64,000 bases of DNA from an uncultured Gammaproteobacteria bacterium (GCA_964352335.1 CAYGRO010000007.1:361-64360); one strand, 5' to 3'. Counted from the first letter of the stretch, positions 45 to 11,177 are shown. Made by a program: numbers and translations. The notes: generated by a model not told the origin, from the sequence alone.

Positions 45-79
45 GGACCTCGTTCACAGTGAACGAGGTCCTTTTTATT
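45..79 (+). terminator. Rho-independent terminator-like hairpin (13-bp perfect stem, 1-nt loop) + T5
   Basis: ggacctcgttcac-a-gtgaacgaggtcc followed by tttttatt; sits only 3 nt upstream of the SD of the next ORF. Confidence 0.6.
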
Positions 80-1201: not shown

Positions 1202-3202
1202 ATGCGTTTTCGTCAACTCGTCTCATCATTTCTCATTGTTGCTTTAGCGGTAACAGGGATGACTATTCCTACATCTGCTGCAGTCGACAGTGCAACAATC
1301 AATTATCTACAAAGCCAAGAGCAAAATAATGCTTGGGTAGTAATGGCACTTAGAGCAGGGGGGCAAACACCTTCTGCCAATCGTCTTTCTACTACACTGA
1401 ATTCTATTACAGATATAGAAAGAACTATTTTAGCTGTTACAGCTGCTAATCAAGACCCAACAAATTTTAATGGAGTGAACTTAATCCAAAAGCTCGATCT
1501 AGAAAGAAAAAATCGACAAATTGGAAGTACTACTCTTATTAATGACGATATCTTTGGTATCTTAGCCTATTATTCTGCAGGGATTCCTTTTACAGATTTA
1601 CGTATTGCGGAAAGTAAAGAATATATTCTCAATCATCAAAATAGTGATGGGGGATGGTCTCATTCTACTTCTTCACCATCAGACTCAAACGATACTGCGA
1701 TGGCAATTAGTGCGTTAATACGAGCTGGTGTTTCTCAAAATGATCCAGCGATTACAAAAGCAGTAAACTATATTAAAACAACACAAAATGATGATGGTGG
1801 TTTTGGTATTTCTCAAAATGCAGACTCAGATAGTGCTTCTACAGCATGGATTATTTCTGCTTTACAAACTGCAGGAAAAACACCGGCTTCTTTTACGAAA
1901 AATAATAAAACACCTTTCATGTTTTTAAATACTGTAAAGCATTCAGATGCTTCGTATAAATGGAAGGCAAATGAAGGTCGTGGAAATGCAACCATGACAG
2001 CCTATGTTGCTATCGCTTTAGCTGGTACCGGATATCCTGTTGCCACTCGAGCTGGTTCAACAACAACTTCAACAAATACAAGTACAAATGTTTCTCGAGT
2101 CGTTAATGATACAACAACAACGAATACACAACGAGTAGCAAATGATACAACGACAACAAATACCGTTCGAGTCGGTTCTCCAACACGAGGAGGGACTCAA
2201 GTAAACTTTAGAATCGAAGGAAGTCAAAATCAAATTTGTGAAGGAACTGCAACAGCGGCAAATCCATTAGATTTAGTAAAAAATGCGGCTTCACAATGTG
2301 GATATAGCTACTTTATCGATCAAACAAGTTTTGGTTCTTATTTGCAACGAGTAAATGCTGACCAAGCATCTGGTTCAAATGGATGGCTGTATTTAGTTAA
2401 CTGGACTCAACCTTCTGTTGCTGCCGATCAATATCAATTAAAAAATGGTGATTATGTCACTTGGTATTTCGGAGAATTCGATTGGAAACCATTAAGAGCA
2501 CAATTAATAAATGCATCTACAGCCCAACAACAAGGAAATGCCATTATTGAAGTTCAGCAATATCAAAGTGGTGCATGGCGTGCCTTTTCTGGAGCAACAG
2601 TGTATTTAACAGGTAGAACTGCTACAACCAATTCTTCTGGTCAAGCAAGTTTTTCTCTTCCAACCGGTTCTTATCAATTTTATGCAGATAGAGCGAATTA
2701 TATTCGTTCAGCGAAAGAAACTTTTAGTGTGAATACCGCTTCAACAAATACAACAACGACAAATACGAATTCAACGAATACAAATTCTTCAACAAGAATT
2801 AGTCGATCAGTTCCACTAGAATCAACAATTATTACAGACCGAGTGTATACGCAGAATACAAATACAACAACGTATAATCCAAATCCACCACAAATGTCAT
2901 TTTCTTTGAATCTAAGTGGTTCTACGACTTCCTTAGGTTTTGGTACACTAAGAGAAGGTCAAACAGCTACACAAAGTGTGACGGTAACAAATACAGGTAC
3001 GACAAGCTTATTAATGACGGCAACAGTAACAGGAGATGCCTTATATACAAATAACTTACGCTTAGATAATCAGTCTTGGGGAAGTTTTTCACGACGTATT
3101 AGTGTAAATAGCGCTTCTCGTATTGATGTATCATTAACTGTTCCTGTAAATTATTCAGACGGATACAAAAGAGGTGACCTCATATTTTGGGCGACTCAGT
3201 AA
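1202..3202 (+). CDS. Secreted multidomain protein: alpha/alpha-toroid (prenyltransferase/terpene-cyclase-like QxxDGGW repeats) + DUF4430-like domain + CarboxypepD_reg-like + beta-sandwich; Thr/Asn-rich linkers
   Basis: N-terminal signal peptide; repeated motifs NSDGGWSHS, QNDDGGFG; segment SNGWLYLVNWTQPSVAADQYQLKNGDYVTWYF homologous to C-terminus of the next gene; TNT-rich low complexity. Confidence 0.6.
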   Translation: MRFRQLVSSFLIVALAVTGMTIPTSAAVDSATINYLQSQEQNNAWVVMALRAGGQTPSANRLSTTLNSITDIERTILAVTAANQDPTNFNGVNLIQKLDLERKNRQIGSTTLINDDIFGILAYYSAGIPFTDLRIAESKEYILNHQNSDGGWSHSTSSPSDSNDTAMAISALIRAGVSQNDPAITKAVNYIKTTQNDDGGFGISQNADSDSASTAWIISALQTAGKTPASFTKNNKTPFMFLNTVKHSDASYKWKANEGRGNATMTAYVAIALAGTGYPVATRAGSTTTSTNTSTNVSRVVNDTTTTNTQRVANDTTTTNTVRVGSPTRGGTQVNFRIEGSQNQICEGTATAANPLDLVKNAASQCGYSYFIDQTSFGSYLQRVNADQASGSNGWLYLVNWTQPSVAADQYQLKNGDYVTWYFGEFDWKPLRAQLINASTAQQQGNAIIEVQQYQSGAWRAFSGATVYLTGRTATTNSSGQASFSLPTGSYQFYADRANYIRSAKETFSVNTASTNTTTTNTNSTNTNSSTRISRSVPLESTIITDRVYTQNTNTTTYNPNPPQMSFSLNLSGSTTSLGFGTLREGQTATQSVTVTNTGTTSLLMTATVTGDALYTNNLRLDNQSWGSFSRRISVNSASRIDVSLTVPVNYSDGYKRGDLIFWATQ

Positions 3203-3207
3203 GAGTT

Positions 3208-3317
3208 TACCTCCCCCTAACCCCCTCCTTATCAAGGAGGGGGAAGTATAATATCATGATGGACCTACGCATTATATTCCTTCCCCTCCTGTCTCAGGAG
3301 GGGATTGAGGGGAGGTA
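3208..3317. repeat. 110-bp MITE/REP-like palindromic element, copy A
   Basis: tacctccccctaaccccctcc...ggaggggattgaggggaggta terminal inverted repeats; second copy at 54757-54866 with ~85-90% identical ends and divergent centre. Confidence 0.6.
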
Positions 3318-3340
3318 TCTAATCGATAAATCAAATACCT

Positions 3341-4348
3341 ATGCTCAAACGACTTAGCTTTATCATCGCTTTCTTATCGCTCAGTTTGATTCCATTATCA
3401 ATGGTGTCTGCTGCAGGAATTGGAATTTCTCCTCAATCATTAGAGATTACACAATCTCCTGGTTCACAAACGGAAACAATGATCTCGGTTCACAATACAG
3501 GAGAAACAACAGCTCTTTACCAAATTTATGCGGACCAATACGAACGATTAATTTCTATCGATGGTGAAGAAATTCGTTTAGCTCCGGGTGAGGGAAGAGC
3601 GATCCCTATTACTGTGGGTTCATTTCCACCGGGAGAATTTACAACAGCAATCTCAATTGTTGCGACGGAAGTGTCGGTTGAAGATTTGCCTAAAACAGGT
3701 GTAAAACTTCCAGTCACAATCAATTCAGTATCACTTATTGAGCAGGGGCAAGCTAATATGATTCGTCAATATAGTTTATATTTCATTGCTTTTGCACTGA
3801 TTCTCTTATTACTAGCAATGTGGTTTCATTCTCGTCGATCAAAAATGCATAAACTGCTTGATACCGCTCAAGAAACATTGGCTAGTCATTCTCTCGAGCA
3901 AACAGCTGACCATTATAGAAAAAAACATCCACTTATTTTTATCAGTCTCTTAGCTTTACTTATTGCTGGTGGATTACTGATCTGGTCATTTATTGCCTCA
4001 GATCAACAGCCTGTAACGGTAGAGATTCAGCAAGGGGTCGAACAATATTCTGTAACAATTCAACATCCAAGTGGTGCAAAAATCTATACAGTACAATCAG
4101 ATCGAGCTATCTCTGCCTTTTCTGCTTTAGAACAAGTACGTGATCAATATGGAATCAGTTTAGCCTATGATCCACCAATTGAATTCGGAATCTTGGTCAC
4201 AGAAATTGATGGTTATACAAATGGGGAAGATGGGCAGTACTGGGTTTTTGAAGTAAATGGAAAACAAGTGCCATCAGCGGCAGATCGGACTCAATTACAA
4301 CCAAATGACCAATTAGTATGGAAATTTGTTATCCCGAGTGCAGAATAA
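3341..4348 (+). CDS. Membrane-anchored protein with C-terminal DUF4430-like domain (335 aa)
   Basis: Signal peptide, central TM helix, C-terminal GQYWVFEVNGKQVPSAADRTQLQPNDQLVWKF matching the corresponding segment of the upstream gene. Confidence 0.55.
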   Translation: MLKRLSFIIAFLSLSLIPLSMVSAAGIGISPQSLEITQSPGSQTETMISVHNTGETTALYQIYADQYERLISIDGEEIRLAPGEGRAIPITVGSFPPGEFTTAISIVATEVSVEDLPKTGVKLPVTINSVSLIEQGQANMIRQYSLYFIAFALILLLLAMWFHSRRSKMHKLLDTAQETLASHSLEQTADHYRKKHPLIFISLLALLIAGGLLIWSFIASDQQPVTVEIQQGVEQYSVTIQHPSGAKIYTVQSDRAISAFSALEQVRDQYGISLAYDPPIEFGILVTEIDGYTNGEDGQYWVFEVNGKQVPSAADRTQLQPNDQLVWKFVIPSAE

Positions 4349-4356
4349 ATTAAAAT

Positions 4357-4944
4357 GTGTATAATAAACTCTTCATTAATCAAAAAACTATGAATCAAAG
4401 AAAAGCTCTTGTAGCTCTCTCAGTCCTAGCGGTCATTTTTGCCGTTACTTTCCGTCTAGTCGACCACCCAGCTAATTTTGCTCCTATTGGTGCAATAGCG
4501 TTAATTTCTGCTTATTACCTAACTGCTCGAGGTTCTTGGGCTATTCCTTTAGGTGCAATGCTTTTGAGCGATGCCATCATCGGTTTTTATAGTCTTCCTG
4601 TGATGTTTGCTGTTTATGCAAGTTATTTAGCGATGTGGGGATTAGGACGATGGGCAAAAAATGCAGAAACAAAAACAGCCTTAGTTCCAGCAGTTCTATT
4701 TGGATCAATTACACATTTTGTGCTTACAAACTTTGCTGTATGGGCTTTTACAGGTATGTACGCAAAAACCCTTTCTGGTTTAGCGCTGTCTTATACAATG
4801 GCCATTCCATTTTTTAAATGGACATTAGCTGGAGATCTCTTTTTTGCTGGACTTTTTATTGCTATGATTGAAGGAGCGAGACAAATGGCAAAATCTATTG
4901 TATCAAAAGATGTAGTAGAAAATGTCATCTATCACCAATCTTAG
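4357..4944 (+). CDS. Small polytopic membrane protein, ECF-transporter S-component-like (195 aa)
   Basis: ~5-6 predicted TM helices, size and hydrophobicity profile of ECF S components; start may be the internal ATG at 4390. Confidence 0.4.
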   Translation: MYNKLFINQKTMNQRKALVALSVLAVIFAVTFRLVDHPANFAPIGAIALISAYYLTARGSWAIPLGAMLLSDAIIGFYSLPVMFAVYASYLAMWGLGRWAKNAETKTALVPAVLFGSITHFVLTNFAVWAFTGMYAKTLSGLALSYTMAIPFFKWTLAGDLFFAGLFIAMIEGARQMAKSIVSKDVVENVIYHQS

Positions 4945-5096: not shown

Positions 5097-5122
5097 AACC
5101 GTCCTTTGGGGCGGTTTTTCTA
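5097..5122 (+). terminator. Rho-independent terminator
   Basis: aaccgtcc-tttg-gggcggtt followed by T-run. Confidence 0.5.
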
Positions 5123-5926: not shown

Positions 5927-6054
5927 CTATTTTTTCACAGCTTTTTTATCAATTATTCAGTCACATTGGTAAAAAGACCAAAGAAAAATAGACTTACTTA
6001 TCGATCAATAGCAAAACAAGAATAAATAGATAAACGGTGCGATGCGGAGTATCT

Positions 6055-9000
6055 ATGCCAATAAAGAAAAAAACACCAAAGAAAAAAGTGGTTAAAAAAA
6101 CTCGAACAAAAACTCGAGCCACAAAAACCAAAACAACAACTCGTAAAAAACGAGCTTCTTCTGTTAGTAAAAAAACAGTGAAGGCAAAACCAGCAAAAAA
6201 GAAAACGACTAAGGTCGCTAAAAAAACGACTGTTAAATCAAAGAAGAAAAAAGTACTAGCTAAGCCTAAGAAAAAAGTAGTTAAAAAGTCTGTGCCCGCT
6301 GTGGCTGTAGAGCGAGCAATAAGTCCATCTACAAAAGCAGGTCAATTGCATAACCGACAAATACAGACAAAACAACATGTATATTTAGCTCCTACGAAAA
6401 CAAATACAGCTTTTTCTGTCTCTGGTTTTTCTTTTCAAAAAGCCTTATCTCAAGTACGAGATAAAGTACATACTACAGATGAGCCAATTGCGATAACTCC
6501 AATAGAAGCTCCAATAAAACTAGAGTTAGATGATCAGCCAGAACAGCCTCATTTTTCTCCCTATGTTTTAGATTTAAAATCAAGAAAAACAGTTGTTACA
6601 ACTCATAAACTTTCTCTCAATTCTGCTAAACCAGAACAAGTACAATTAGGTCTTTTTGAAGAAGAGGTTAAAACACCTGTTCAATTTATTGCTCAATCTT
6701 GGAATAATTTTCTTGCTTCACTCAAACCAAGAAGAAGAATTAATCTTATCCCTCGTGAACAAAAGCAAGGAGTCAGTTTATCTCAGAAGATCGCCAGAAA
6801 GCATAAACGATTTCAATTTCATTTAGAAGAATTTGGAGAGTTATTATCTCGTCCGTATCAACTTTGGAGAGATGCTAAACGACAAAAAACTTTTGGATTG
6901 CCTCGAGAAACGAGTAGGCAGAAACAAGTTCCACTAATTTCAAATAGAACAAGGTCTGGTGAAGCCATTCCTGTTTCTCGTATAGATAAAATTCATCAAA
7001 AAGCAAAAAATGTTGCCGCTTCTGCACAGATTTCTGTGACAAGTTTATCTGATGTATTAAAACGTCAACCCAAACCAAAGAAAACTTTTTCTTTAGAGCA
7101 TTTATCTTTGCAAAAAGCTTTTATGCCTTTTGCTGTTTTGGCTTTTGTCATTTTATTGCCTTTTGCTGGGGCGTCACTGTATGAAGGGCTTTCTCAAACA
7201 CAAGGTGAAGTATTAGGAGCAACAAATCAGGCTGTTTCGAAATTGCAATCAGCTACCAACTATGCAAAATCTTTTCAGTTTTTACAAGCGAGTAAAGATT
7301 TTCAACAGGCTTCACAAACATTTTTAGCGGCATCTGCATTAATTGAAAACCAACAAGGGCTTTCTACCAAGGCTTTATCTGTATTACCAGTTGTTGGAGA
7401 AAAAGTGAGAGCAGGGAAAGATTTATTAACGATTGGAAATGAATTATCAGAAGCAGCAACCTTATTTTCACAAGGTATTGCTGTATTGGCAGATGAAAAA
7501 CATTTTCTTGTGGATCAGCCGATGTCATATAAATTGGAATACCTTTTTGTTCGATTACAAGAAGCACAACCACATGTGCAATCAGCTGTTTCGATGTTAA
7601 ATGAAATCGATCCTGCAAATATCCCAGAAGATATTCAAGGTGATATTGAAATGCTTAAACAATCATTACCAGTTCTTTCAGAAAAATTACATCAGTTTAC
7701 GGAAATGGATCAATCTGTTCTTAGCTTTTTAGGGCATCAAAACTTAGAGCGATATTTAGTTGTATTTCAAAATAATACAGAATTACGAGCTACAGGTGGA
7801 TTTTTTGGAAGTCTTGCGTTAGTTGATATTGACCGAGCAGAAATAAAAAATATTGAAATCCCTGGTGGTGGTCCCTATGATTTTCAAGGAAGTCTTTACA
7901 AAAACTATGAATCACCAAGAGCAATGCAATTGATTAATCCTCGATGGGAGTTACAAGATACAAATTGGTTCTTTGATTGGCCAACATCTGCTCAAAAAAT
8001 TACACATGTCTATGAACAATCTGGTGGTCCAACTGTTGATGGTGTGATTGCTTTAAATACAAATGTACTACAAACATTGTTAGAATTTACTGGTCCCGTC
8101 CAATTAGCATCGTATGAAAAAGAATTCTCTGCCGAAAATTTTAGAGAAATTTTGCAACAACATGTTGAATTTGAATACGATGAAGAATTAAACCAGCCAA
8201 AGAAAATTATTGCAGACTTAGCTCCTGTTTTATTGGAACGAGTTAAGTTATTAGATCCTGTTGAATACTTAGAGTTAGCAGCACATTTAGGTGAATTATT
8301 TCAAACGAGAGAACTCTTTATTTATCATACAAATGAAGACGTGCAAAAAGAATTTTCTAAGTTAGGATGGTCAGGGGAAGTTGTACAAACAGAAAGCGAT
8401 TACTTAGCCATTGTACATACAAATTTAGCTGGTGGAAAAACAGATGGTGTTATCAAAGATTCTTATGATCTTACAACACATTTTTCTGAAAACAATACTA
8501 TTCAGCATACATTAACAATTGCACGTACACATACGGGTCAAAAAGGAATTCCATTAATTGGAGTACGAAATGTAGATTACTTAAGAGTTTATGTACCAAA
8601 AGGAAGTAAACTTATCTCCGCAACTGGTTTTGAAAAACCACCAACAGACTTATTTGAATCTCCTGGAGAAAATTGGATTGTTGACCAAGATTTATTAGCA
8701 AGCCAAGGTACATACACAGTAGATTCAACGACAGGAGTAGAAATCTATGAAGAATCTGGAAAAACAGTCTTTGCAGATTGGGTGCAAACAGATCCCGGAG
8801 AAAGACAAGAAATTCAAATTACTTATGAAGTGCCAGCGAGTGTTATTTCTGAATTTATTTTACCAACTCGTGAGTCTTCTTGGTTAGATTGGGTTACTGG
8901 TAAAACAGTTAATACAGAAGAAGAAGTAAAAGCCTATCAACTGTATTGGCAAAAACAATCAGGTGCATGGGACCCAGAAATGCATTTGAGTATTGATTAT

Positions 9001-9117
9001 CCACAAGAATGGCAATTACAATCCTTTTCTGATGTCACAGGAGATCATGGAATAGGTAAATGGTCAGCACAAGCGAGTATGAATGCAGACTCATTGTGGA
9101 ATTTCCTTCTTTATTAG
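6055..9117 (+). CDS. Large membrane-anchored protein with Lys-rich histone-H1-like N-terminal tail and ~650-aa extracytoplasmic domain
   Basis: SD GGAG 6 nt upstream of ATG at 6055; N-terminus KKKTPKKKVVKKTRTKTRATKTKTTTRKK…; single TM (FMPFAVLAFVILLPFAG) near residue 360. Confidence 0.55.
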   Translation: MPIKKKTPKKKVVKKTRTKTRATKTKTTTRKKRASSVSKKTVKAKPAKKKTTKVAKKTTVKSKKKKVLAKPKKKVVKKSVPAVAVERAISPSTKAGQLHNRQIQTKQHVYLAPTKTNTAFSVSGFSFQKALSQVRDKVHTTDEPIAITPIEAPIKLELDDQPEQPHFSPYVLDLKSRKTVVTTHKLSLNSAKPEQVQLGLFEEEVKTPVQFIAQSWNNFLASLKPRRRINLIPREQKQGVSLSQKIARKHKRFQFHLEEFGELLSRPYQLWRDAKRQKTFGLPRETSRQKQVPLISNRTRSGEAIPVSRIDKIHQKAKNVAASAQISVTSLSDVLKRQPKPKKTFSLEHLSLQKAFMPFAVLAFVILLPFAGASLYEGLSQTQGEVLGATNQAVSKLQSATNYAKSFQFLQASKDFQQASQTFLAASALIENQQGLSTKALSVLPVVGEKVRAGKDLLTIGNELSEAATLFSQGIAVLADEKHFLVDQPMSYKLEYLFVRLQEAQPHVQSAVSMLNEIDPANIPEDIQGDIEMLKQSLPVLSEKLHQFTEMDQSVLSFLGHQNLERYLVVFQNNTELRATGGFFGSLALVDIDRAEIKNIEIPGGGPYDFQGSLYKNYESPRAMQLINPRWELQDTNWFFDWPTSAQKITHVYEQSGGPTVDGVIALNTNVLQTLLEFTGPVQLASYEKEFSAENFREILQQHVEFEYDEELNQPKKIIADLAPVLLERVKLLDPVEYLELAAHLGELFQTRELFIYHTNEDVQKEFSKLGWSGEVVQTESDYLAIVHTNLAGGKTDGVIKDSYDLTTHFSENNTIQHTLTIARTHTGQKGIPLIGVRNVDYLRVYVPKGSKLISATGFEKPPTDLFESPGENWIVDQDLLASQGTYTVDSTTGVEIYEESGKTVFADWVQTDPGERQEIQITYEVPASVISEFILPTRESSWLDWVTGKTVNTEEEVKAYQLYWQKQSGAWDPEMHLSIDYPQEWQLQSFSDVTGDHGIGKWSAQASMNADSLWNFLLY

Positions 9118-9134
9118 TTCTTTTAGTCACTTTT

Positions 9135-11177
9135 ATGGCGAAAAAATCAAAAAAATCTAAACAAAAAAAGAAATTAGCTGATTTTAAAAAACAGCAATCA
9201 GATATGGTTGTGCAGGATAATCCTCTAGAAGAAACCGTACAGAATGAGAAGAAAGTAGAGATGAATTCTAAAAAGGAACGAAAGCCACGAAAAGGTTTAG
9301 GCCAAGAACTTATCGAAGTCTATGAATCAACAGGAGATGACTTAACTTCTGTAACCATGCTTGAGCATAGACGAAGAAGTTGGCAAAGAATGCTTTTGAT
9401 CATTCTTATTTTCCTTTTCTTTGTATTTATTGGTGTTGCCGTTGTGTCTTGGATTATTTGGGGTGGAAATAAAAGTTTCAGTGGAGATAATGTAGAGTTT
9501 AGTATCGCTGCTCCCACGGAAATTAATTCTGGACAAGAAGTGACTTATAAAATTGATTATGCGAATAGAGAAGATGTTAGTTTTAGAAAAGCAGAAATTG
9601 AATTGCGATTACCTCCTGGATTTATTTTCCTTTCTGCAGACCCAAGCCCAACAACGGGAGAAAACCTTTGGGATTTAGGTTCACTAAGTGCTGGAGACGA
9701 TGGAAGTATCGAAGTAATAGGGAAGCTTGTTGGAAAACCAGAAGTTGATACCACTATTTCTGGTGTATTACGATATTGGCCTGCAAACTTTAGTTCAGAG
9801 TTTCAAGAAGTAGCTTCTGCACAGTCTTTAGTAAAACCAGTACAAGCATTATTTAGAATTGAAGGTCCAGATCAAGTTCTGATTGGGCAAAAAGCGAGTT
9901 ATGCGGTAAATGTAAAAAATGATTCAGATAAGCTCATGAGCGATTTACAAGTACAAGCTATTTATCCAGCTGACTTTATTGTTGATTCAACGGAACCAGA
10001 AATTGTGGAACCATATGATACATGGGAAATTGAATCAATCGAACCGGGGCAAGAATATGAAATTCAAATTGATGGCTTCTTTTCTAAGCTTGAAGAACCA
10101 GAATTAGAGCTTATTGTTGTGCTATCTCAAAAAGGACCAGAAGAGGGTTATTTTGACCAAAAAGAAGAGCGTATATCTACTGTATTGATTGAAGGGGATT
10201 TACTTGTAAACCTCATTGCAAACGGTACAACAAAAGATACATCTGCCCAATGGGGAGATGTGATTAATGTATCAATTAATTATCAAAATAGTTCAGAAGC
10301 TCAATTAGCAGATCTAACTGTGATTGCAAAACTAGAAACTCGTTATCGGATAAATGAAGGGGAAAAAGGCAGTGCAGGTGGAATTAGTTTCTCATCTCTT
10401 ATCGATGCAAATAAAGGGAGCGTTAAAGAAGTAGATAAAATAAATGCTCAATCGGTACACGTGCGTACGATTACATGGGACGGAACAGATATTGATTCAC
10501 TAGAATCATTAGATGAAGATGAAGAAGGAACAATTAATCTTCAGTTTTCATTACTAGATGCAGAAGCTGCGATTAAAGCATTAGATCATGCAGGAGATGC
10601 AGAAATTGTTCTTGTTGCAGATGTCATTGTTGGAAAAACAGGAGGAGTAGATGAAGAAATTACGGTAACAAGTAATCCAATTACAATAAAATTGAATACA
10701 GATCTTACCATGGACGCATTCGCAAGATATTATGGTGAAAATGAAGAACAATTAGGAAATGGTCCATTACCACCAACGGTTGGAGAAAAAACAACTTATC
10801 GAGTTTTTGTTGATTTAACAAATTCTATTCATGAAGGGCAAGATATTATTGTTAGTACACAATTGCCATCTAATGTTTCTTGGGTAAATAATTATTCCGT
10901 AAGTGCTGGTGAAGTGGAATTTAGCTCAAGCGGTAGCGATTTAACTTGGCGTTTGAATAAATTGCCATTAGATGTAAATGAAGTTTCTCTCGCTTTTGAT
11001 GTTGAGTTAAATCCTCTAGAAACACAAATTGGTAAAGTAGCTGCTTTAACGAAGAAAATCACCATGACAGCTACAGACTCAATTACTGGTGGAAAACTCA
11101 TACAAACAGCTTCTCCATTAACAACGGCTATCGACCGAGATAAAACAGGTTCAGATAAAGGTTTGGTCACAAATTAA
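9135..11177 (+). CDS. Membrane-anchored protein with Lys/Glu-rich cytoplasmic N-tail and repeated beta-sandwich (DUF11-like) ectodomain
   Basis: Likely start MAKKSKKSKQKKK at 9135; TM LLIILIFLFFVFIGVAVVSWIIWGG; adjacent and co-oriented with 6055-9117. Confidence 0.55.
   Translation: MAKKSKKSKQKKKLADFKKQQSDMVVQDNPLEETVQNEKKVEMNSKKERKPRKGLGQELIEVYESTGDDLTSVTMLEHRRRSWQRMLLIILIFLFFVFIGVAVVSWIIWGGNKSFSGDNVEFSIAAPTEINSGQEVTYKIDYANREDVSFRKAEIELRLPPGFIFLSADPSPTTGENLWDLGSLSAGDDGSIEVIGKLVGKPEVDTTISGVLRYWPANFSSEFQEVASAQSLVKPVQALFRIEGPDQVLIGQKASYAVNVKNDSDKLMSDLQVQAIYPADFIVDSTEPEIVEPYDTWEIESIEPGQEYEIQIDGFFSKLEEPELELIVVLSQKGPEEGYFDQKEERISTVLIEGDLLVNLIANGTTKDTSAQWGDVINVSINYQNSSEAQLADLTVIAKLETRYRINEGEKGSAGGISFSSLIDANKGSVKEVDKINAQSVHVRTITWDGTDIDSLESLDEDEEGTINLQFSLLDAEAAIKALDHAGDAEIVLVADVIVGKTGGVDEEITVTSNPITIKLNTDLTMDAFARYYGENEEQLGNGPLPPTVGEKTTYRVFVDLTNSIHEGQDIIVSTQLPSNVSWVNNYSVSAGEVEFSSSGSDLTWRLNKLPLDVNEVSLAFDVELNPLETQIGKVAALTKKITMTATDSITGGKLIQTASPLTTAIDRDKTGSDKGLVTN

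Follow-up and report, generated by a model that had tools for sequence, protein, structure and literature searches.

In Lactobacillus delbrueckii, the vitamin B12-specific S-component CbrT is encoded in the cluster nrdJ-cbrS-cbrT-pduO (Santos et al. 2018, PMC5997447; PDB 6FNP), and BtuM of Thiobacillus denitrificans, which resembles an S-component, is a B12 transporter that works as a solitary protein (Rempel et al. 2018, PMC6072759; PDB 8OVV and 8C7P). Bacterial proteins in which a toroid is fused to an SLBB domain, along with fusions to immunoglobulin (Ig) folds, were predicted to be B12 scavengers by Burroughs, Balaji, Iyer and Aravind (2007, PMC1796856), who noted a further SLBB paralogue encoded in the same operon, CbiO/CbiQ neighbours and hosts that lack B12 synthesis. 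DUF4430 is the C-terminal beta-grasp (SLBB) domain of transcobalamin (PMC1796856, PMC4350170). The present analysis concerns three neighbouring genes at positions 1202–4944 of a 64,000-nt stretch of DNA (GCA_964352335.1 CAYGRO010000007.1:361-64360, recorded as an uncultured Gammaproteobacteria bacterium), which is termed the window. These genes most likely represent a cell-surface vitamin B12 capture and import system of a small-genome bacterium of the Patescibacteria, or Candidate Phyla Radiation (CPR).

The three open reading frames (ORFs) are on the plus strand and are present as an earlier note on this DNA had described them: gene 1 at 1202–3202 (666 amino acids, aa), gene 2 at 3341–4348 (335 aa) and gene 3 at 4357–4944 (195 aa). 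The longest gene 3 ORF starts at 4357. The gene for P0001, whose product is 100% identical and 184 aa in length, has been called from M12, and the start of gene 3 is therefore probably nt 4390 (4390–4944). With either start, gene 2, which carries DUF4430 and ends at 4348, is directly upstream of the putative transporter gene. The same gene order was found again in the Patescibacteria contigs L088, L090, L020 and L062 and in the contig of P0124. A scan of GTDB species genomes gave at least 583 stretches encoding relatives of gene 3, a DUF6580 protein (more than 580 species). Eighty loci were kept, and the genes around them were counted with hidden Markov models (HMMs) built in this analysis; a DUF4430 gene is directly adjacent to DUF6580 in 32 of the 80. 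Because the order recurs in related contigs and DUF4430 so often adjoins DUF6580, the arrangement is not due to chance. Named homologues are nearly all from Patescibacteria metagenome-assembled genomes (MAGs), and one homologue of gene 3 is from an Acidoferrum MAG.

Comparison with the nrdJ-cbrS-cbrT-pduO cluster shows the same placement of a DUF4430 gene directly upstream of a gene for a small membrane protein with an S-component fold. In relatives of the window the DUF4430-DUF6580 pair also clusters with a B12-dependent ribonucleotide reductase (RNR) and a cobalamin adenosyltransferase, as in Lactobacillus. In locus L006 the place of cbrS is taken by a DUF4430 gene, and cbrS is taken to be a DUF4430 gene because the gene between nrdJ and cbrT in L. 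helveticus carries this domain (the ORF there is only 56 aa). The C-terminal half of gene 2 corresponds to the gene in the cbrS slot in both domain content and position. The locus is unlike ECF-CbrT, an energy-coupling factor (ECF) transporter, in that gene 3 belongs to DUF6580 and not to ECF_trnsprt/ECF-ribofla_trS, and no ECF module was found nearby. It is also unlike the CbrT cluster in that a complete transcobalamin-like protein and Ig-like domains are also encoded in the Patescibacteria locus.

The core idea is already known, since toroid-SLBB proteins were predicted as B12 scavengers in 2007 (PMC1796856). Unlike the operons described there, which have ECF genes of the CbiO/CbiQ type, the locus has a DUF6580 partner, no ATPase gene nearby and Patescibacteria hosts. 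What is new is this Patescibacteria setting, the DUF6580 partner and the B12 link of this large family; the fusion in gene 2 is a further difference. No paper mentioning DUF6580 was found in a limited literature set, and searches of that set on CPR B12 or ECF transporters gave nothing relevant. Within that set, a link between DUF6580 and cobalamin riboswitches, BtuB-like receptors or nrdJ/pduO appears to be unreported.

The DUF6580 membrane protein

Gene 3 matches Pfam family DUF6580 (PF20221) with an E value of 2.7e-39. The structural model has a predicted local distance difference test score (pLDDT) of 95 and is a compact helical bundle, with seven helices by DSSP. The best Foldseek matches are BtuM with hydroxo- or cyanocobalamin (8OVV, 8C7P), with TM scores of 0.65–0.70 and a root-mean-square deviation (rmsd) of 3.7–4.1 Å. 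These are followed by PanT (4RFS_S), 5EDL, RibU, ThiT and 4HUQ_S, and the match probabilities, BtuM included, are 0.6–1.0.

A PDB search with the single gene 3 sequence gave no match. A profile of 85 DUF6580 proteins gave exactly one, 6FNP_A, at an E value of 1e-3. This 182-aa chain, entitled 'Membrane protein', is taken as CbrT, the B12-specific S-component of L. delbrueckii; relatives found with the aligned 6FNP_A fragment are named 'ECF transporter S component' and lie within an nrdJ...pduO cluster. The hhalign alignment of DUF6580 and CbrT has a probability of 81% and an E value of 1.2e-5 over 100 columns, and the motifs R..PN.xP and S(D/N)xxxGF are common to both. The relatives of CbrT carry PF12822/PF07155 (ECF_trnsprt/ECF-ribofla_trS), and DUF6580 is therefore a separate family remotely related to CbrT. 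The earlier note had called gene 3 ECF-S-like. The fold and the remote CbrT homology bear this out, and a match to one of the named ECF-S Pfam families does not, as the Pfam scan gave DUF6580 only.

The likeness to BtuM extends to context, as Gram-negative DUF6580 genes accompany btuB-like receptor genes without ABC (ATP-binding cassette) genes. It does not extend to sequence: there is no match at that level, and Cys80 of BtuM, the essential axial cobalt ligand that gives decyanation, has no counterpart in gene 3. Gene 3 is without cysteine, and none is invariant in 83 aligned DUF6580 proteins; the column richest in cysteine has it in 47 of the 83, and gene 3 has no cysteine there. The BtuM type of Cys80 ligation is therefore absent, and membership of gene 3 in the BtuM family was rejected. 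Polar residues common to riboswitch-linked and Patescibacteria members of DUF6580 are R22, H26, N29, D61, N114, Y124 and D149. Conserved His26, in a 'PHPxNFAP' loop, is a possible candidate for the ligand.

DUF6580 is large, with 6,869 clusters at 50% identity (E ≤ 1e-3) or 5,160 (E ≤ 1e-10). The 337-aa database protein P0315 is a single-chain fusion with DUF6580 at residues 5–165 and DUF4430 at 255–329, which argues for direct cooperation of the transporter and the SLBB domain.

On balance, gene 3 is probably a solitary carrier like BtuM rather than a user of a shared ECF ATPase. This is favoured because no ABC genes are nearby and because the Gram-negative, BtuB-linked context is that of BtuM. 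A motif scan of the 64 kb showed no ABC-ATPase signature in any ORF of the window, and no ABC or EcfT Pfam family is present among the ORFs scanned (38 further ORFs at 9–62 kb; about a dozen ORFs of 100–210 aa were unscanned). The ecfA/ecfT genes for which the earlier note had proposed a search were thus not found near gene 3. In approximately 1.2 Mb around the 80 DUF6580 genes there are only five ABC-like ORFs, none of them both adjacent and co-oriented; EcfT was not searched there.

A true ECF S-component, working with ATP-driven import on a shared EcfA/A'/T module encoded elsewhere (group II, as for CbrT), is a variant of the proposed model and not an alternative to it. The remote CbrT homology and the S-component fold of gene 3 are consistent with this variant, genes for group II S-components usually lie apart from those for their module (PMC5997447), and SLBB operons often contain CbiO/CbiQ genes (PMC1796856). 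It is nevertheless rather unlikely in view of the ABC and EcfT scans of the window, the scarcity and placement of ABC-like ORFs around the 80 loci, and the position of Gram-negative DUF6580 beside BtuB-like receptors, the context that led to the ECF-independent BtuM (PMC6072759). That BtuM is the best structural match of gene 3 also speaks for the solitary carrier.

The proteins of genes 1 and 2

Gene 1 was described in the earlier note as a toroid with an additional domain of about 100 aa, and both parts were recovered by Pfam as expected there. Prenyltrans, SQHop_cyclase_N and SQHop_cyclase_C are matched within residues 114–253, above the Pfam cut-offs, and DUF4430 (PF14478) is matched at residues 380–424 (E 2.8e-9, 37.7 bits, cut-off 23.8). 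The AlphaFold model was built on 84 homologues and has a mean pLDDT of 85.7 and a predicted template modelling score (pTM) of 0.50. From sequence and model, the protein consists of a signal peptide (residues 1–27), an alpha/alpha toroid with QxxDGGW repeats (residues 30–285, positions 1289–2056), a disordered T/N-rich linker (residues 288–329) and a DUF4430/SLBB domain of beta-grasp type, similar to the transcobalamin beta-domain (residues about 332–426, positions 2195–2479). These are followed by a beta-sandwich (residues about 428–511), a second linker and a C-terminal Ig-like domain (residues 532–666, positions 2795–3199), for which there are weak Cep192_D4 and choice-of-anchor-D matches in addition to the model. 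The last domain is a possible tether. C346 and C366 are invariant in the family alignment of the SLBB domain, which suggests a disulfide. Proteins of about 600 aa with the architecture of gene 1 are common in Patescibacteria, and they are annotated only as 'DUF4430 domain-containing protein'.

A Foldseek search of the PDB with the gene 1 model places intrinsic factor, transcobalamin and haptocorrin in all of the top 15 positions (E 5e-12 to 7e-10). The alignments cover approximately 460 columns, that is, the toroid and the beta domain in the same order, with 14–17% identity. Terpene cyclases and prenyltransferase beta subunits rank below the carriers, at 3.5e-7 or weaker. The transcobalamin-like architecture that the earlier note had proposed is thus seen at the level of fold, and its comparison of DUF4430 with the transcobalamin beta-domain agrees with the two papers cited above. 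Gene 1 shares with transcobalamin, intrinsic factor and haptocorrin (2BB5, 2PMV, 4KKI) an alpha6/alpha6 toroid, a flexible linker and a C-terminal beta-grasp domain in that order. Unlike the animal carriers, it has about 240 extra C-terminal residues (beta-sandwich and Ig-like domain), and the inter-domain geometry is not reproduced. Because the rmsd is large and the pTM low, the match is one of architecture and not of the closed, ligand-bound conformation.

PDB matches of gene 1 found by sequence only are squalene-hopene and drimenyl-diphosphate cyclases and nothing else. In class II cyclases the general acid is provided by a DxDD motif. In one of two alignments, D161-S-N163-D of gene 1 aligns with the DVDD of drimenyl-diphosphate synthase, and N163 is nearly invariant across the gene 1 family. 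Replacement of the DVDD segment by DSND, the near invariance of N163 and the export of the protein argue against an enzymatic role.

Gene 2 has a signal peptide, readable in the sequence as in gene 1, an Ig-like domain (residues 30–130), a transmembrane hairpin (approximately 144–219) and an SLBB domain, in that order. The Ig-like domain has a weak HYDIN/VesB Pfam match at residues 30–110. Homology between this domain and the C-terminal Ig-like domain of gene 1 was not demonstrable by BLASTP (E 0.17–0.25). The hydrophobic helices are at about 144–163 and 197–219, with a basic loop between them (SRRSKMHK...RKKH). The positive-inside rule would place this loop in the cytoplasm and the two globular domains outside the cell, and gene 2 may be regarded as a membrane-anchored helper. 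DUF4430 is matched at residues 258–329 (positions 4112–4327, plus strand; E 9.2e-12, 45.7 bits, cut-off 23.8), in a part of the protein predicted to be extracellular. The nearest PDB sequence is that of 3U7Z, a DUF4430 protein, and this match is weak. The C-terminal motifs of genes 1 and 2 align directly in BLASTP (E 1e-5, 39% identity over 36 residues) and both domains are DUF4430 by Pfam, as expected from the shared domain that the earlier note had recognized.

The two halves of gene 2 are present as separate neighbouring genes in L062 and L004, one for an Ig-like protein of 171–178 aa and one for a DUF4430 protein of 150–151 aa. Gene 2 matches the Ig-like gene of L062 with an E value of 9e-19 and the DUF4430 gene with an E value of 1e-4. 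Because its halves match separate adjacent genes, gene 2 represents a gene fusion.

A reversed architecture is found mainly in MAGs of Magasanikbacteria type (L008–L012, L016, L018, L025, L029 and L061). In these loci a DUF4430 gene of about 170–220 aa is followed by a gene for a 570–1000-aa protein with a C-terminal toroid and then by DUF6580. Three of the toroid proteins also have SLBB domains N-terminal to the toroid, an order opposite to that of gene 1. Several of these MAGs are recorded as 'uncultured Gammaproteobacteria', which looks like mislabelling.

Genomic context and the nature of the ligand

Around the 80 DUF6580 loci, a gene for a toroid protein was found in 13, nrdJ in 21 and pduO in 10. 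The gene order in L004, from a member of the Patescibacteria, is nrdR, nrdJ, pduO, DUF4430, DUF6580, PIN, a gene 1 homologue and an Ig-like gene. L088 and L090, whose gene 1 homologues are 68% and 45% identical to that of the window, share its downstream synteny (DUF4012, DUF11/CLIPPER, TGT and a methyltransferase, and in L088 also DUF167). In both, a gene for a CobA/BtuR-type adenosyltransferase is present 2–4 kb upstream of genes 1–3. L088 also encodes a class II-like RNR, which has a TSCPD domain and a faint match to the RNR-II insertion domain.

Outside the Patescibacteria, DUF4430 is missing from the DUF6580 loci of Ignavibacteriota, Bacteroidota, Pseudomonadota, Elusimicrobia and Thermoanaerobaculia. 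Rfam cobalamin or adenosylcobalamin (AdoCbl) riboswitches were found at the gathering score in 21 of 31 such loci scanned, a sample in which 20 loci had been pre-selected by a B12-box pattern (19 positive) and 11 had not (2 positive). The riboswitch is upstream and on the DUF6580 strand in 19 of the 21, and on the opposite strand in L074 and L087. Typically a riboswitch is followed by a TonB-dependent receptor (Plug and beta-barrel) and then by DUF6580; in L076, the B12-dependent methionine synthase MetH comes next.

Thus four independent lines of context agree on B12: the Lactobacillus cluster, the Patescibacteria relatives, the gene counts at the 80 loci and the riboswitches. The earlier note had suggested capture of a corrinoid or another scarce cofactor, and the corrinoid is supported by nrdJ and pduO/btuR in the relatives and by cobalamin riboswitches in other phyla. 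The check for cobalamin-dependent enzymes that it had proposed gave a result in relatives only, which carry nrdJ and pduO/btuR.

Several observations weigh against a B12 system. No homologue of nrdJ, pduO or nrdR is present in the 64-kb window when searched by tblastn with the L004 queries; this absence is uninformative for nrdJ and pduO, since no more than 1.2 kb of the window precede gene 1. No cobalamin riboswitch is present in the window at the Rfam gathering score, and a permissive scan of positions 1–1300 showed nothing credible. The B12 link is drawn from relatives and other phyla and not from the window itself. Gene 1 has no match to Pfam Cobalamin_bind (PF01122) at E ≤ 0.1, and the relative position of its domains is unreliable (pTM 0.50; rmsd of 14–22 Å to transcobalamin and intrinsic factor). 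Further, a homologous arrangement in L. sakei (Lsa1836–1840), with an ECF module and separate proteins similar to the alpha and beta domains of transcobalamin, has been reported as a heme importer (bioRxiv 10.1101/864751).

The last observation would allow the same apparatus in the window to capture heme or another porphyrinoid, as claimed for Lsa1836–1840. Deletion and complementation of the L. sakei operon were used to test heme uptake, and heme was docked into a model of the transcobalamin-like heterodimer (bioRxiv 10.1101/864751). The locus in the window is unlike that system, which is assigned to heme, in that the associations of DUF6580 and DUF4430 genes are with nrdJ, pduO/btuR, MetH and cobalamin riboswitches, not with heme genes. 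In addition, the affinity of CbrT for cobalamin and cobinamide is nanomolar (PMC5997447), and among characterised proteins CbrT is nearest to gene 3 in sequence. A tetrapyrrole other than a corrinoid is therefore improbable as the ligand. Least probable is that gene 1 is an enzyme or wall-associated protein of the terpene-cyclase/prenyltransferase superfamily, unrelated to B12 and only by coincidence adjacent to genes 2 and 3, a reading to which the cyclase matches found by sequence and the Pfam names of the toroid would lend themselves, and against which stand the secretion of the protein, DSND at the DVDD position with its near-invariant N163, the preference of the whole-protein fold search for B12 carriers, and a gene order with DUF4430 and DUF6580 that is kept across divergent Patescibacteria.

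In L017, L045, L079 and L069, two cobalamin-type riboswitches bracket DUF6580, one directly upstream and one directly downstream (L017 3070–3209 and 3847–3992; L045 9139–9336 and 10014–10211; L079 6682–6856 and 7594–7770; L069 168–315 and 960–1155). The downstream riboswitch precedes a further plus-strand ORF of 320–690 aa in L017, L045 and L079. The two separate riboswitches point to independent B12 control of adjacent genes. Unusually long RNR genes (1,099–1,466 aa) adjoin the loci in L088 (1281–5681), L014 (5752–9417) and L048 (6032–9331). In the RNR of L088, Ribonuc_red_lgN and Ribonuc_red_lgC are each matched in two stretches, which suggests inteins or other insertions in the class II RNRs of Patescibacteria. 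Genes of about 290 aa lie in L088 (6524–8398, where there is also one of 331 aa) and L090 (1442–2326) between btuR and the GC-rich island described below. Their only signal is a faint TauD-like stretch below the cut-off (E 1e-4 and 8e-3), with no family assigned; possibly they belong to a B12 salvage cluster as additional members.

Flanking sequences and the proposed pathway

Immediately before gene 1 is a segment of 1.2 kb (positions 1–1200) with a GC content of 55–61% compared with 35–40% for the genome. With this one, such GC-rich islands (55–63%) are found directly upstream of gene 1 in three related genomes, the others being at about 8500–10000 in L088 and at about 3250–4000 in L090. The junction in the window is not a chimera, as the independent assembly L001 shows the same junction. 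The flanks of the islands have approximately 70% DNA identity, and the islands of the window and L088 share only 55 nt. This conserved segment contains a terminator-like hairpin at positions 45–71 (plus strand) with a 12-bp stem and a T-run, which is likely the 5' boundary of the transcription unit. A second terminator-like hairpin 3' of gene 3 (5097–5116, plus strand) is the likely 3' boundary.

Two plus-strand ORFs in the island are possible accessory genes. The first, at 90–536, is so regarded by position only and encodes a small lipoprotein with an RR-type signal, a lipobox and a G/S/P linker. In L088 and L090 a homologue immediately precedes gene 1. The linker of the island lipoproteins is of the GGSGGSSGGGAPAP type, and the proteins are 30–44% identical over partial alignments, i.e., homologous and very divergent. 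In the L090 island the gene caller chose the wrong strand. The second, at 545–1084, encodes 179 aa without a family match. A second island ORF is also present in L088, and an ORF of like size (178 aa) has been called in the contig of P0124. The 545–1084 product was considered as a third DUF4430 paralogue from its 'IFWFFG' ending and was rejected, as it shows no BLASTP similarity to gene 2 and no Pfam or SLBB HMM match.

The spacer between genes 1 and 2 (3203–3340, plus strand) has a nested structure by RNA folding with two C/G-rich hairpins, CCCCTCCT...AGGAGGGG, at 3222–3242 and 3283–3303. The fold of the spacer is -60.9 kcal/mol with a z score of -4.9, and the hairpin pattern is unique within the window. 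Between ORF 545–1084 and gene 1, the spacer (1085–1140) contains a perfect 13-bp hairpin at about 1100–1129, with a z score of -7.4 and no T-run. The hairpins of both spacers are unusually stable, and they may act in the stability or processing of the mRNA and so determine how much of gene 1 there is relative to genes 2 and 3. Downstream, positions 6037–11177 encode two large envelope proteins, a DUF4012 protein of 1026 aa, very rich in K and T at its N-terminus, and a DUF11/CLIPPER-repeat protein of 705 aa. Both hold the same position in L088, L090 and the contig of P0124.

Taken with the sequence matches and structural models, positions 1202–4944 probably encode a system of three parts by which a Patescibacteria cell captures and imports a corrinoid of the vitamin B12 type. 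In the proposed pathway, gene 1, a putative secreted corrinoid-capture protein, would be exported by its Sec signal peptide and would bind the corrinoid between the toroid and the DUF4430/SLBB domain, with a flexible linker as in transcobalamin. Its Ig-like domains probably hold the protein at the cell surface. The two-helix hairpin of gene 2 would anchor another SLBB domain beside the transporter, on the external side of the membrane. Like CbrS-type DUF4430 proteins, gene 2 probably takes over the corrinoid and passes it to the transporter. Gene 3 would then carry the corrinoid across the membrane, and a BtuR- or PduO-type adenosyltransferase would convert it to adenosylcobalamin for the class II RNR. 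A broader proposal, put forward tentatively, is that DUF6580 may be a large unrecognised family of B12 transporters with an S-component fold and independent of ECF modules, acting after BtuB in Gram-negative bacteria and fed by the relay of genes 1 and 2 in Patescibacteria.

In gene 1 the whole transcobalamin architecture has a compact bacterial homologue, which makes the proposed bacterial origin of the animal carriers testable. Under the broader proposal, the relay of genes 1 and 2 would correspond in prokaryotes to the carrier-plus-receptor pathway of animals, and it would be the chief supply route to class II RNR in these ultra-small bacteria. B12 import by DUF6580 would point to a dependency of Patescibacteria in which deoxynucleotide (dNTP) synthesis by a B12-dependent reductase is fed by scavenged corrinoid, and the surface proteins named here are possible targets in co-culture work. 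In Gram-negative bacteria, DUF6580 would take over from BtuB at the inner membrane and would be controlled by cobalamin riboswitches. Many B12-requiring bacteria lack the known transporters BtuFCD, ECF-CbrT and BtuM. If DUF6580 is a B12 importer, this gap would be filled for many lineages, among them Patescibacteria, Ignavibacteriota and many Bacteroidota MAGs, and B12 cross-feeding in communities could be better predicted.

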